IMG/VR virus record: IMGVR_UViG_2703718804_000009
Length of the DNA stretch: 38,798 nt
Origin: a virus
Taxonomy: Duplodnaviria; Heunggongvirae; Uroviricota; Caudoviricetes
Strand: one strand, 5' to 3'
Part shown: in pieces, positions 2,841 through 35,491 of the stretch
How positions within the stretch are numbered: the stretch's first letter is position 1
Layout: the number at the start of each line of letters is the position of its first letter
Position numbers and translations under genes: made by a program
Notes under the pieces: model-generated
What the model was told of the DNA's origin: nothing
Database searches by the model: none
What the model saw: the letters and a program-made list of their open reading frames with translations, nothing else

Positions 2841-3009
2841 TATCGCGCCCTCAACAATGAGTTTTGTGATGCGGTGCCTGGTGCCTCCAGGTGACGTTAA
2901 CCAGTTAACAATTAACGCCGGATACAGAGAATCCACCCATAACACTGTTTTTGGTTTTAACTGTTCCGCGTGCGCTTAGCCGCATTCACCGCATCACAAA
3001 ATTCACTTT

Positions 3010-3067
3010 AAAAATGGCGGCAGAGCAGTCACGGAGTAAAACTGATACCGCCAAACGTCACCAGAAA
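3010..3067 (-). ncRNA. dicF: DicF small RNA (ftsZ-targeting sRNA of the dicB operon)
   Basis: Reverse complement of 3010-3067 reads TTTCTGGTGACGTTTGGCGGTATCAGTTTTACTCCGTGACTGCTCTGCCGCC followed by a U-run, matching the DicF sequence as I recall it; located between the ydfC-like gene and dicB. Confidence 0.75.
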
Positions 3068-3401
3068 ATTGATAACAGAGGGCGTTGCAGCGGGGTTGTC
3101 ACTTAAGCGTATGGTCAACCTGACAACCCGGTGTCCTCAACGGGGAAGGAATAACCCCGCCATACTTACCGCCGCGCCATTTCGCGGAGTGCCACAACCG
3201 GAAGCGCACGGTCGACGAAAATTTAACGACAGGCTATCTATGAACCAGCTACCTCGCCGTGCGCTTTCGCGTTATGGTCTGACTTTTCAGGGAAATATCC
3301 TTTCAGTAAACTGTCAGTGCCGGATGCTCACCCGTGTCCGGCGCACGTACTCCACCTCACCCGTGGAGAACTCCTTAATCACCAACCCTCAGGAGGGTGA
3401 A

Positions 3402-3677
3402 ATGTCGACTGAAAATGATGAAATCATTAACTCCCTGATACGCCAAATTAATAATTTTGATAAAGCATTGCAGCATGCTGCGGCGCGTAGTGATATAACT
3501 CTTTTAGCAATTTCATTTCTTGCATCTGTTATGGATAAAAATGAAGTCGTACGACAGAGTCTTGTTGATTATATCGACTCGCTTCAACCCGGCACTTTCA
3601 ATCATGAGAGCTTCAATCATGAGAAAGAGCATGTTAAGTCTGTAATTAATTCTCTTATTTTGAATCAAAAGAATTAA
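3402..3677 (+). CDS. hypothetical protein (91 aa), rightward gene embedded in the leftward operon
   Basis: ATG at 3402 with strong SD (AGGAGGG) 5-7 nt upstream; AT-rich coding sequence; the upstream in-frame extension in track ORF 3069..3677 is GC-rich, Arg-rich and not protein-like. Confidence 0.45.
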   Translation: MSTENDEIINSLIRQINNFDKALQHAAARSDITLLAISFLASVMDKNEVVRQSLVDYIDSLQPGTFNHESFNHEKEHVKSVINSLILNQKN

Positions 3678-3975
3678 TGCTTTTTGTTGCAAAGTAATTT
3701 TCAAGGGGTTCTATTCGAATCCCTTTCTTTTTCATTAACAAGCCAAACCCCTTATCAATGATGTCCATTAGATCCAGGAAGTATTTTTCATGTAAATCCT
3801 GGTTATCAGAGAGCTGCTTCTCTTCGTACAGACCGATAAAGGCACGACGCACGTTACCGGATATAGTATCGATGGTTTCTTTTTCTACGGTACTCAGGTC
3901 AAGAGTCGCCAGTTGGGAACGAACTATATTCGCTGCCATTTCCTGGAATTGCATTGGTAAATCTTTAAATTCCAT
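3655..3975 (-). CDS. hypothetical protein (106 aa)
   Basis: Track ORF; GAGG SD about 8 nt upstream of the ATG at 3975; 22 bp downstream of the ydfC-like stop; 3' end overlaps the convergent 3402..3677 ORF by 23 bp. Confidence 0.55.
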   Translation of the reverse strand: MEFKDLPMQFQEMAANIVRSQLATLDLSTVEKETIDTISGNVRRAFIGLYEEKQLSDNQDLHEKYFLDLMDIIDKGFGLLMKKKGIRIEPLENYFATKSINSFDSK

Positions 3976-3997
3976 TATTAGCCTCGTTGGTTAGCTA

Positions 3998-4216
3998 TTA
4001 ACGCGGGTATGTAATCATTCTGGCAATGCTTAATGCCGCTGCTTTTTCCAGCCTGGTGATATCCTGCTCCAGAGCGGACAGATTTTCAGCCTGCTTAACC
4101 CTGGCTTCATTAGCCCATTTCAGATCCTGCGCTGCATTAATTTTCTGGCGCATCCACTCATAAAGTTCATCATCGGTATAGTCTGGCGCGATGATGACGG
4201 GTTCTCGTTTCTGCAT
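3998..4216 (-). CDS. YdfC-like small protein (72 aa)
   Basis: Track ORF; size and position match ydfC of the Qin dicB operon (from memory). Confidence 0.55.
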   Translation of the reverse strand: MQKREPVIIAPDYTDDELYEWMRQKINAAQDLKWANEARVKQAENLSALEQDITRLEKAAALSIARMITYPR

Positions 4217-4802: not shown

Positions 4803-5519
4803 TCAGTCTAAGTATTGATGTATTTGTGAAACTTTACCTTTAATGGTGTAACCACCATTCAGTTCGATGGGTTTGTAAAGCGGATTCAGTGACAACAGAT
4901 AGATGTTTGGTCCGTCAATCGCAACTTTTTTTAGTGTTACGTTTGGCGTTCCTTCCAATTGGATTAAGATTATTTTTCCCACCAGTTCTCTAATGTTACT
5001 TGAGCATGGTGTGATCAGCACGGTAGATCCATCGGGGATGGTTGGGAGGCCGTTAGAGTTTGTCATCGCATCTCCCTCAACATGCAATAAAAAAGAGTTT
5101 TCAGCGGTTTTTGTCATGACATCAACCCAATTCTTAATGCCAGGAATCTCGGTTACTGGACAACTCATATCCCAATAACCAGCCTGTTCCCACGTTAAAA
5201 CGGGCAACCGGGCGATGTTGTCACTAATGTAAAGATACTGATTCAGACGCAGATCATCGGTTTTATCGTGACCGTCCTTTCCATAAAGAATCCATTCAGG
5301 AGATTTGGAAAGCAATTTTGACAGTAGATGCAAATTCTCACCGTCAGGTTTTGAAGAGCCATTTTCCCATTTTGTTACGGATACACGAGATATGCCGATT
5401 GCTTTCGCAACCTGCTGTTGGGTTAATCCAACGTCTTTTCGACGATTCCGAATACGTTCGCTGATAGTGTTTTTCATGTAACCAATGTTACTACCAAGTG
5501 ATGTTGCTATGGTTGACAT
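4803..5519 (-). CDS. cI: CI-type prophage repressor (HTH plus LexA/S24-like autocleavage domain)
   Basis: Track ORF 4803..5576; XRE-type HTH (LTQQQVAKAIGISRVSVTKWENG) and a C-terminal S24 peptidase-like region; divergent from the cro-like gene. Start is ambiguous (5519 MSTIATS or 5477 MKNTISER); the mRNA may be leaderless. Confidence 0.8.
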   Translation of the reverse strand: MSTIATSLGSNIGYMKNTISERIRNRRKDVGLTQQQVAKAIGISRVSVTKWENGSSKPDGENLHLLSKLLSKSPEWILYGKDGHDKTDDLRLNQYLYISDNIARLPVLTWEQAGYWDMSCPVTEIPGIKNWVDVMTKTAENSFLLHVEGDAMTNSNGLPTIPDGSTVLITPCSSNIRELVGKIILIQLEGTPNVTLKKVAIDGPNIYLLSLNPLYKPIELNGGYTIKGKVSQIHQYLD

Positions 5520-5541
5520 TGCTATGTAACTATTGTTACCC
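5513..5541 (+). promoter_or_regulatory. candidate pR/OR: consensus -35 TTGACA (5513-5518) followed by operator palindrome GTAAC-N4-GTTAC (5526-5539)
   Basis: Read directly from the sequence; the -10 element is weak or ambiguous; the region sits between divergent cI and cro-like genes. Confidence 0.4.
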
Positions 5542-5568
5542 TCCTGCTCGAAATAACAGGAGAGTTTT

Positions 5569-5784
5569 ATGTTCAAAGATGATGTTCTGCGCTATTTCAA
5601 AAAAAAGCGACTAGTAGCTGAGGCTCTTGGAATTTCACATGTGGCTGTTGTGCGGTGGAAAGCAGTTATTCCCAAACTTCGCGCAATGGAACTGGATGAA
5701 ATTACTAACGGTGAATTGAAATACAACCCAGAACTTTACAAGAAGCAGGATAGCACCTCGAACGAAGGAAAGAATGATTCATGA
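5569..5784 (+). CDS. Cro-like HTH regulator (DicC/YdaS family)
   Basis: Track ORF; 71 aa; divergent from cI; AGGAGAG SD; resembles DicC/YdaS-type Cro proteins (from memory). Confidence 0.65.
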   Translation: MFKDDVLRYFKKKRLVAEALGISHVAVVRWKAVIPKLRAMELDEITNGELKYNPELYKKQDSTSNEGKNDS

Positions 5785-10303: not shown

Positions 10304-10631
10304 AAACAGAAACAACAATTGCCGTTACCTGTTGTTACCATGGCAAGTAAACGTATCTCAGGCGAGCGCATTGCGCCGTTCTGACGCAGATAAATTAGCC
10401 TGGATAGAAGGTGCTGGCAATAAAAAATAGCGTTTTCTTATCGGTGTCGGTAAGATTGCTGCGGGTGCTTGAGGCTGTCTGCCTCAGGCATGCCACTGTA
10501 AGGCAGACAGAGAAAAGCCCCAGTTAACATTACGCGTCCGGCAAGACGCTTAACATTAATCTGAGGCTCAATCTATGAACGGCAAATCTAGGTTAGCCTC
10601 TTACGCGCCGAAAGGCAAGGAGAAGCAGGCT

Positions 10632-10787
10632 ATGAAGCAGCAAAAGGCGATGTTAGTCGCCCTGATCGTCATCTGTATTACCGTCATTGTGACGGCACTG
10701 GTAACGAGGAAAGACCTCTGCGAGGTACGAATCCGAACCGGCCAGACGGAGGTCACTGTCTTCACAGCTTACGAACCTGAGGAGTAA
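10632..10787 (+). CDS. hokD: Hok/Gef-family type I toxin (51 aa), near-identical to HokD/RelF as recalled
   Basis: MKQQKAMLVALIVICITVIVTALVTRKDLCEVRIRTGQTEVTVFTAYEPEE; AAGGAG SD 9 nt upstream; structured leader; an in-frame upstream ATG at 10575 gives the 70-aa track ORF. Confidence 0.85.
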   Translation: MKQQKAMLVALIVICITVIVTALVTRKDLCEVRIRTGQTEVTVFTAYEPEE

Positions 10788-14143: not shown

Positions 14144-14219
14144 CGGCCCTTTAGCTCAGTGGTGAGAGCGAGCGACTCATAATCGCCAGGTCGCTGGTTC
14201 AAATCCAGCAAGGGCCACC
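14144..14219 (+). tRNA. tRNA with CAT anticodon, most similar to tRNA-Ile2 (lysidine, AUA-decoding; ileX/ileZ-like); tRNA-Met not excluded
   Basis: Hand-folded cloverleaf: 7-bp acceptor stem, GCTC/GAGC D-stem, CTCATAA anticodon loop, perfect T-arm (GCTGG TTCAAAT CCAGC), CCA end. Confidence 0.7.
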
Positions 14220-14220
14220 A

Positions 14221-14297
14221 ACCGCCACTAGCTCATCAGGAAAGAGCGTCAACCCTTTAAGTTGAGTGTGCGAGGTTCGAGTCCCCGGTGGCGGTCC
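14221..14297 (+). tRNA. tRNA-like gene, atypical; predicted anticodon UUU (Lys) with C at position 33 and one T-stem mismatch; possible pseudo-tRNA
   Basis: Hand-folded: 7-bp acceptor stem (CCGCCAC/GTGGCGG), D-stem GCTC/GAGC, anticodon stem TCAAC/GTTGA with loop CCTTTAA, TTCGAGT T-loop, CCA end. Confidence 0.4.
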
Positions 14298-14299
14298 AG

Positions 14300-14375
<76 letters not shown>

Positions 14376-14378
14376 ATA

Positions 14379-14454
<76 letters not shown>

Positions 14455-34400: not shown

Positions 34401-34824
34401 CCAGATTGAAGGCGATCTCGTTAAAACAGTGGGCAAAGCTTTCCCCCGGGACTCCCGTGCACCGGAGCGGTGGCCATCAGGAACCATTACCGTCAGGGTT
34501 TATGACGATCAGCCGTTTGACCGGCAGATTGTTATTCCGGCGGTGGCATTCAGTGGCGCTAAACATGAGAAAGAGCATACTGATATTTACTCCTCATGCC
34601 GTCTGATCGTACGGAAAAACGGCGCTGAAATTTATAACCGTACCGCGCTGGATAATACGCTGATTTACAGTGGTGTTATTGATATGCCGGCTGGTCACGG
34701 TCACATGACGCTGGAGTTTTCGGTGTCAGCATGGCTGGTAAATAACTGGTATCCCACAGCAAGTATCAGCGATTTGCTGGTTGTGGTGATGAAGAAAGCC
34801 ACTGCAGGCATCACGATTAGCTGA
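31429..34824 (+). CDS. J: central tail fiber / host specificity protein J (lambda gpJ-like)
   Basis: [34 protein letters not shown] matches the lambda J N-terminus as recalled; about 1131 aa. Confidence 0.9.
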
Positions 34825-34842
34825 ATTTTATAATCCAGATAC

Positions 34843-34867
34843 GGGCGCCAGAAATGGCGCCTTTTTT
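34843..34867 (+). terminator. intrinsic terminator after J
   Basis: GGGCGCC-AGAAAT-GGCGCC hairpin followed by T6. Confidence 0.65.
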
Positions 34868-34891
34868 ATTGCAGAAAAGCGAGAGGTAATT

Positions 34892-35491
34892 ATGCGTAAA
34901 TTATGTGCTGTTATTTTGTCCGCAGTAGTCTGGCAGGTCGCCGCTGCTACGCCAGCGAGTGCAGCAGAACATCAGTCCACGCTGAGCGCGGGGTATCTTC
35001 ATGCCTTGACGAACGTTCCCGGCAGCGATGCTCTGAACGGGATTAACGTGAAATACCGTTATGAGTTTACGGACATACTGGGGATGGTGACGTCATTCAG
35101 CTATGCAGGAGACAAGAATCGCCAGCTTACCCGTTACAGCCATACCCGCTGGCATGAGGATTCTGTGCGTAACCGCTGGTTCAGCGTGATGGCGGGGCCG
35201 TCTGTGCGCGTGAATGAATGGTTCAGCGCGTATGTGATGGCGGGGGGGGCTTACAGCCGTGTATCGACTTTTTCCGGGGATTATCTCCGCGTAACTGACA
35301 ACAAGGGGAAAACGCACGATGTGCTGACCGGAAGTGATGACGGTCGCCACAGCAACATGTCTCTGGCGTGGGGGGCTGGCGTGCAGTTTAACCCGACCGA
35401 ATCCGTGGCCATTGATGTCGCTTATGAAGGTTCCGGCAGTGGCGACTGGCGCACTGACGGTTTCATCGTGGGTGTCGGTTATAAATTCTGA
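34892..35491 (+). CDS. lom: Lom outer-membrane protein (Ail/Lom family beta-barrel), moron
   Basis: Signal peptide; alternating beta-strand pattern; C-terminal GVGYKF; position between J and stf as in lambda. Confidence 0.85.

Follow-up and report, generated by a model that had tools for sequence, protein, structure and literature searches.

What are two small convergent genes doing between ydfC and the DicF RNA in the early-left operon of a lambdoid E. coli prophage? The question is raised by a stretch of viral DNA of 38,798 nucleotides (nt), here called the window (Caudoviricetes; IMG/VR record IMGVR_UViG_2703718804_000009), in which positions 3402–3975 carry two open reading frames (ORFs) with overlapping 3' ends. 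The leftward gene, L106 (3655–3975, − strand), encodes 106 amino acids (aa), the rightward gene, R91 (3402–3677, + strand), encodes 91 aa, and the overlap comprises 23 bp (3655–3677). The original prediction, made from the letters of the window alone, had given these coordinates and regarded the pair as a two-gene insertion. An indel with two real genes is indeed present, but it is not a one-off event: it represents a single allele of a slot that is polymorphic and widespread, in which the leftward gene often stands alone and at least nine alternative rightward ORFs are found. The locus is a multi-allelic accessory slot, combining a mosaic early-left gene with a small opposing gene behind a shared leader, and this conclusion is robust.

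The leftward early operon of the window includes, in order downstream of a helix-turn-helix (HTH)/S24 repressor, ydfA (DUF1391), ydfB, ydfC (3998–4216, − strand; phrog_1744), DicF (3015–3066, − strand; Rfam RF00039, 73.4 bits), dicB, a DUF1482 gene (ydfD-like) and an exonuclease. The Qin-type dicB-operon order that had been predicted around DicF is thus borne out by the Rfam match and by the families of the flanking genes. The dicBF operon of K-12 Qin (ydfABC-dicF-dicB-ydfD) has the same order and a 335-nt untranslated spacer before DicF (PMC5069750). In alignment with K-12 Qin, window positions 3388–3977 form a single clean gap of 590 bp, and the flanks are approximately 97% identical; Qin differs in that the slot is empty and the ydfC stop is joined directly to the spacer. 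The cassette lies between ydfC and the untranslated spacer leading to DicF. It is AT-rich, as had been claimed, with a GC content of 37.8% (34.8% in the R91 ORF and 31.4% in the 3' half of the L106 ORF), compared to 50.5 and 48.0% in the flanks. At the cassette ends no convincing direct repeat or target-site duplication was found, only a 6-bp inverted match (ACCAAC/GTTGGT). Papers on DicF treat the interval as untranslated, or draw non-conserved genes there in white.

R91 and L106 are real protein genes with starts as first given, and their families are uncharacterised. They are recognised as genes by their strong ribosome-binding sites, by diverged alleles that are intact, and by ratios of non-synonymous to synonymous substitution rates (dN/dS) of 0.19–0.32. 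The Shine-Dalgarno (SD) sequence of R91, AGGAGGG (3391–3397, + strand), is located four bases before the ATG, and that of L106, GAGG (3982–3985, − strand), six bases upstream. Comparison of L106 with a 124-aa allele, L124, gives a dN/dS of 0.32, and the C-terminal domain of the related L133 has a dN/dS of 0.187 at dS 1.6. A second R91 allele (loci L007–L010), with 16% diverged DNA, keeps the frame intact, and its dN/dS of 0.31 is lower than in any of the other five frames. A 13-nt sequence is present twice in tandem at a 15-bp interval (3597–3624, + strand); it codes for ESFNH and varies in copy number, such that one, two or three copies of the 15-bp repeat result in in-frame R91 alleles of 86, 91, and 96 aa. 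R91 is also distantly homologous to the R92 family (phrog_18692; 28% identity over 86 aa, E 1e-5), which has a dN/dS of 0.245 at dS 0.74 between E. coli and Salmonella; the R91/R92 family includes 38 clusters, all from Escherichia or Salmonella. At least one ATG-initiated ORF of at least 91 aa appears in only 35 of 2000 shuffles (1.75%) of the 590-bp cassette.

A longer rightward protein, of 202 aa (3069–3677) or of 145 aa (3240–3677) as sometimes called by the Prokaryotic Genome Annotation Pipeline (PGAP), was considered and rejected. The upstream extension is non-coding: variable sites in 3069–3401 are spread evenly over the codon positions (42/45/43), a stop 14 codons upstream is present in many loci, and in the R77 variant the extension is out of frame. 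Ahead of the true start, the R91 frame is free of stops for a further 111 codons, and versions of 117–145 aa are often called by PGAP and other pipelines; the cluster representative P0122 (481 members), for example, is a 145-aa overlong call of this frame. Recognition of the slot would help gene callers to mend start-site errors such as the 145-aa calls.

The leftward protein is a mosaic. L106 has a conserved N-domain of approximately 55 aa (MEFKDLP...NVRRAFIGLY) and a variable C-terminal part. It matches phrog_6937 at 2.9e-69, and the N-domain alone matches phrog_1363, 2151, 9419, and 33007. A full scan of 1.84 billion proteins identified 37 representative relatives, all sharing residues 1 to approximately 60 (MEFKDLP...NVRxAFxGLY) and continuing into unrelated C-termini, with total length up to 208 aa; a 212-aa form is carried by one contig. 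The C-terminal parts of L106 and L133 were compared as candidate homologues, and no homology was detectable. L106 is acidic and soluble, and its AlphaFold2 (AF2) model has three helices at a predicted local distance difference test score (pLDDT) of 69. R91 is likewise acidic and soluble (isoelectric point 5.4; grand average of hydropathy −0.31), with a maximal 19-residue Kyte-Doolittle mean of 1.43, no transmembrane segment, and four predicted helices (AF2, pLDDT 62).

The prediction that neither protein can be named was upheld by the checks it had proposed, including sequence and profile searches and structure prediction. Neither R91 nor L106 has a significant match in Pfam, NCBIfam or PADLOC, and in PHROGs only function-unknown families are matched. 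Profile search of the PDB gave no match below E 0.2 for either protein, and Foldseek gave none at E ≤ 0.001 in PDB and BFVD, the queries being low- to medium-confidence AF2 models of generic helical bundles. At least eight slot variants were also searched in Pfam, PHROGs, NCBIfam, and PADLOC, with function-unknown PHROGs as the only result save a threshold-level GhoS match of one variant. The public label "dGTP triphosphohydrolase" on the 77-aa R77 was taken as a mis-annotation. In RefSeq, both ORFs are hypothetical proteins (WP_000102678.1 and WP_000394534.1), and neither accession is mentioned in the literature. The identical R91 protein is present on at least 1000 public contigs, and each copy read is named "hypothetical" or "uncharacterised".

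How variable the slot is can be seen in 99 DicF-anchored viral contigs. It is empty (K-12-like) in 59, carries L124 alone in 12, a leftward gene with a convergent rightward gene in approximately 24, and a rightward gene without recognisable leftward N-domain in four, of which one has a transposase-like ORF in place of the leftward gene and two have a standalone mid-domain of it. The leftward gene is thus without rightward partner in 12 of the 36 occupied loci, and also in O157 strain Z1723. Different prophages have different combinations: L124 is accompanied by a 73-aa rightward ORF or stands alone, L133 is always found with R92 (46+ loci), and L135 with the 77-aa R77. The DicF-anchored sample adds rightward types of 66, 64, 69, 65, 94, and 143 aa, and R73 has no detected homology to R91. 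Among complete E. coli genomes, 1447 of 5426 have DNA matching at least part of L106, and only 198 of 5426 have the full pair. The allele of the window is also carried by NCTC86 (98.8% identical) and by the O25:H4 strain CU568-3, the identity in these two strains being 98.5–98.8%.

The rightward and leftward ORFs are separable modules, because the same L106/L124 core is paired with R91, with R73, or with nothing. Similarly, the "LLEDAKRLQQLEPNAGTEARIW" domain is paired with R92/93 or with a GhoS-like ORF of 94 aa (PF11080, 21.2 bits at a cut-off of 21). The two R91 alleles differ by 16% while the adjacent leftward ORF differs by 2.7%, which indicates recombination inside the cassette. The overlap between convergent partners is 11–41 bp among the first-tallied variants, 4 and 0 bp in two later ones, and absent from two frameshifted or disrupted loci. 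In Salmonella prophages lacking DicF, R93 converges with a free-standing 71-aa homologue of the L133 C-domain; the two overlap by the same 41 bp, and the leader before R93 is homologous to that of the window. Two loci in IMG/VR have other occupants. In L209, the partner of the 94-aa rightward ORF at the Pfam GhoS threshold is a leftward gene that consists of the "LLEDAKRLQQLEPNAGTEARIW" domain by itself (48 aa). In L216, a 143-aa rightward protein with a coiled coil and a CxxC zinc ribbon (phrog_1244) lies between the DicF spacer and two conserved hairpins, without leftward partner.

The junction at the start of the rightward gene is precise. Among approximately 120 IMG/VR contigs, R91, R92, and R73 have identical upstream sequence as far as the ATG (...CCAACCCTCAGGAGGGTGAAATG), and R77 has a one-base deletion there; in these four kinds, compared base by base, divergence begins immediately after the ATG. 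R91, like at least three other unrelated rightward ORFs, is joined to the shared leader and SD exactly at the start codon. In two further rightward types, divergence begins directly behind hairpin 1. The 100 nt before the R91 ATG are the best-conserved part of the spacer, and the conserved leader (3317–3400, + strand) is predicted to fold into three hairpins at 3317–3344, 3347–3371, and 3379–3400, the last of which pairs the SD. The folding energy is −38.8 kcal/mol on the + strand (z −4.2), versus z −0.03 on the − strand. Rare hairpin variants, read by eye, point to both strands. The GC-rich hairpins at 3317–3371 each have a CTCACCCGTG motif, 29 nt apart, and both are kept in Salmonella, in all slot variants, and in K-12 Qin, where the slot is empty. 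One possibility is that they act in processing or antitermination of the DicF precursor.

Is there a known gene at the corresponding place in other lambdoid phages? In the K-12 Rac prophage (L239, 2406–3312), racR, ydaG, and ydaF (DUF1391) are leftward, sieB (superinfection exclusion B, a known exclusion gene whose product aborts the growth of superinfecting phages) is rightward with a 4-bp overlap with ydaF, and the small RNA (sRNA) kilS and the gene kilR are leftward. Rac and the window have homologous DNA on both sides of the interval. In lambda, the SieB ORF (34482–35036) is rightward and abuts the N stop. R91 has an equivalent position and orientation to sieB: in each case the gene is rightward in a leftward early operon and convergent with the preceding early gene, with a 3' overlap of 0 bp in lambda, 4 bp in Rac, and 23 bp here. 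In Rac, sieB is followed by kilS and the division inhibitor kilR, as R91 is followed by DicF and dicB, and kilS would be the positional counterpart of DicF. The Rac locus differs in that the DNA upstream of sieB is non-homologous to the window leader. The sieB gene of P22 is expressed from the prophage (PMC10883804).

Extra genes inserted between the conserved genes of lambdoid phages, with their own promoter and terminator, are known as morons (Hendrix and colleagues). The rightward gene resembles these in being present or absent at a precise junction among close relatives (59 of the 99 DicF loci are empty), in its deviant base composition, in its orientation, which would allow expression in a repressed prophage, and in the terminator-like element after the gene. 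It differs in three respects: its promoter is only a candidate, the slot is multi-allelic with shared leader and ATG, and R91 lies partly within the 3' end of a leftward gene that is polymorphic, not between intact neighbours.

The reading tentatively preferred here, as quite possible, is that a moron-like, independently transcribed rightward gene, possibly for exclusion, has been set against a polymorphic early gene in a swap-in slot of the early-left operon. The segment would then be one allele of a recombination hot-spot in Qin/Rac-type lambdoid prophages, just upstream (in the operon sense) of a module consisting of an sRNA and a cell-division inhibitor. L106, with its helical N-domain and exchangeable C-terminal part, would be made from the repressor-controlled early transcript and may be an early host-takeover, anti-defence or antidote protein. 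R91 would be transcribed alone from a weak candidate promoter in the leader while the prophage is repressed, its transcript would end at terminators inside the L106 3' end that are present on the + strand only, and converging early-left transcription would shut it off on induction. This pattern is proposed because the sieB genes of lambda, Rac, and P22, at the equivalent place, are so arranged and expressed. The most likely role of R91, by the same analogy, is an accessory function expressed in the lysogen, e.g., superinfection exclusion or defence.

Candidate signals for such a transcription unit are present on both sides of R91. A sigma-70-like promoter, read by eye, consists of TTTTCA (3284–3289), a 17-nt spacer and TAAACT (3307–3312) on the + strand, an 8/12 match. 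The hexamers persist in Salmonella (TTTTCA/TAAGCT) while most of the spacer between them differs, which is suggestive only. Downstream, an AT-rich inverted repeat holding both stop codons (3645–3685, + strand) was found by repeat search and is followed by TTTTT on the + strand only; its fold is not significant alone (z −0.38). A terminator scan identified a terminator-like hairpin with a T-run at 3703–3735 (+ strand), 26 nt past the R91 stop and within the L106 coding sequence, and the same element is found in locus L003. Since both T-runs are on the + strand only, leftward transcripts would read through to DicF. Another promoter-like site lies upstream of DicF at 2905–2932 (+ strand; TTAACA, 16 nt, GAGAAT, 9/12), its score being within chance expectation. 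This site is also found in locus L005 and in K-12; transcription from it, if it is active, would be antisense to DicF and could supply the rightward gene.

Several observations weigh against this reading. The promoter scan, with a threshold of 9/12, found no promoter upstream of R91, and an 8/12 match such as the candidate read by eye is often expected by chance. Empty sites also have leader hairpins 1 and 2, as does the region downstream of R143, and these hairpins may serve the leftward DicF precursor rather than an mRNA of the rightward gene. The + strand terminator at 3703–3735 is absent from the R92 and R77 variants. The "LLEDAKRLQQLEP" domain is paired with R92/93 or with GhoS-like R94, and since rightward and leftward modules recombine independently, the two genes are less likely to be a strictly cognate pair. 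For both proteins, searches of PADLOC, Pfam, NCBIfam and PDB sequences, and by fold, gave no significant result. The likeness to sieB is one of place and orientation: R91 has no SieB domain and no membrane segment, and at 91 aa it is half the size of SieB (approximately 160–190 aa), which has hydrophobic membrane segments at its N-terminus. The Pfam SieB model (PF14163) detects the lambda and Rac proteins at 1e-29 and 1.5e-31, and R91 has no Pfam match at E ≤ 0.1; identity of R91 as a SieB protein was therefore rejected. The suggestion of the original prediction that the arrangement is of moron or exclusion type, with its own promoter, is thus supported by sieB of lambda and Rac, which are so arranged, but it is weakened by the poor promoter match and the null PADLOC result.

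A more specific version of the preferred reading appears distinctly improbable. According to this, the slot holds diversifying two-component exclusion modules, in which the rightward protein, made from the repressed prophage, would block or abort incoming phages, the variable C-terminal part of the leftward protein would act as the corresponding antidote and let the lytic cycle of the prophage itself proceed, and converging early-left transcription would be an antisense off-switch. If true, R91 and its counterparts would be minimal soluble analogues of SieB/Esc/sas that share a leader into which they are plugged and that evolve as their cassettes are exchanged. It is also conceivable, at similarly low probability, that the rightward RNA or protein sets the DicF and DicB yield of the operon.

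Among the rival explanations, the one that survives best, although rather unlikely, is that two functionally unrelated accessory genes came to lie side by side through lambdoid mosaic shuffling, L106 acting in early host takeover or anti-defence, and R91 in, e.g., host physiology or prophage regulation. The reassortment of modules described above (the leftward core with R91, R73 or alone, the mid-domain with R92/93 or GhoS-like R94), the recombination inside the cassette, and the lack of any defence-family signal in PADLOC are all compatible with such independence. It accounts less well for the small rightward genes of the first-tallied variants being convergent and overlapping with their leftward partners, and for the pairing of R92/93 with the leftward C-domain, and its 41-bp overlap, being conserved between E. 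coli and Salmonella even though dS is 0.7–1.6.

Very improbable is a toxin-immunity or toxin-antitoxin-like pair, in which the C-terminus of the leftward protein is the effector and the rightward protein its constitutive cognate inhibitor. Operons for pore-forming colicins have a convergent immunity gene on the opposite strand, and the slot is similar to these and to polymorphic toxin/immunity loci in that the leftward family has a conserved N-terminal region and hypervariable C-terminal parts with a small variable gene immediately 3'. The constant pairing of L133 with R92 and of L135 with R77 is in line with this, as is the one occupant resembling GhoS, a type V antitoxin endoribonuclease. 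However, the leftward gene occurs without rightward partner in a third of the occupied loci (12 of 36) and in O157 strain Z1723, which would be lethal or costly if it encoded a toxin, and one leftward core tolerates the unrelated R91 and R73. Strict co-variation of the polymorphic toxin-immunity type was therefore rejected, partners being switched and L124 being alone in 12 loci. There is also no detectable toxin, antitoxin, delivery or immunity domain; the C-termini of the leftward proteins tested, including the 212-aa form, match no Pfam family and no recognisable toxin. R91 itself is all-helical and has no similarity to GhoS, and no GhoT-like membrane toxin is adjacent. A type II toxin-antitoxin system was likewise rejected, the genes being convergent and not co-transcribed, and Pfam, NCBIfam, and PADLOC being without significant match.

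The least probable explanation is that the rightward ORF matters as a transcription unit and not as a protein, convergent transcription insulating the toxic dicF, dicB, and ydfD from leaky early-left transcription in the lysogen. In its favour, the unit lies directly upstream of DicF and is pointed towards the early promoter, the slot accepts many unrelated ORFs, and dicBF expression is toxic (PMC5069750). Against it, the rightward frame has the lowest dN/dS, far less than 1, the strong SD is conserved at ideal spacing, repeat-number variants are in frame, and 59 of the 99 loci, K-12 Qin among them, have no rightward unit.

Other features of the prophage were recorded. The repressor gene of the early-left operon (4803–5576, − strand) encodes a 257-aa protein with HTH and S24-peptidase domains (LexA/CI-like). 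In K-12 Qin, DicA is annotated at 408 bp (approximately 135 aa), and the immunity module of the window prophage is therefore a different one, joined to the same early-left operon. The intergenic region between DicF and dicB has a sub-threshold match to STnc100, a gammaproteobacterial sRNA (2863–3003, − strand; 38.8 bits versus a gathering score of 47, E 1e-6). A sok antitoxin RNA of the hok/sok type I toxin-antitoxin system (10463–10637, + strand; Rfam RF01794, 110.7 bits) and a cluster of four tRNA genes (14145–14451, + strand; Rfam tRNA matches) are located inside the prophage.

R91 and L106 are probably ordinary prophage accessory cargo, with a function that is predicted at most. The protein families are uncharacterised; moron-like genes at the position of sieB are a familiar kind of feature and part of ordinary mosaicism among lambdoid phages. 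The exchange of cassettes precisely at the ATG behind a shared leader, opposite a polymorphic leftward partner, is noteworthy and would not surprise a phage genomicist. DicF and DicB affect cell division, metabolism, and phage resistance, and approximately one quarter of complete E. coli genomes carry matches to part of L106 beside them. With its multiple alleles behind one common leader, at the place of sieB in lambda and Rac, the slot offers a cheap and concrete experimental handle. If its occupants are exclusion/antidote pairs, very small soluble proteins would join the defence repertoire of prophages; if they are not, the slot would be an instance of ordinary lambdoid mosaicism.

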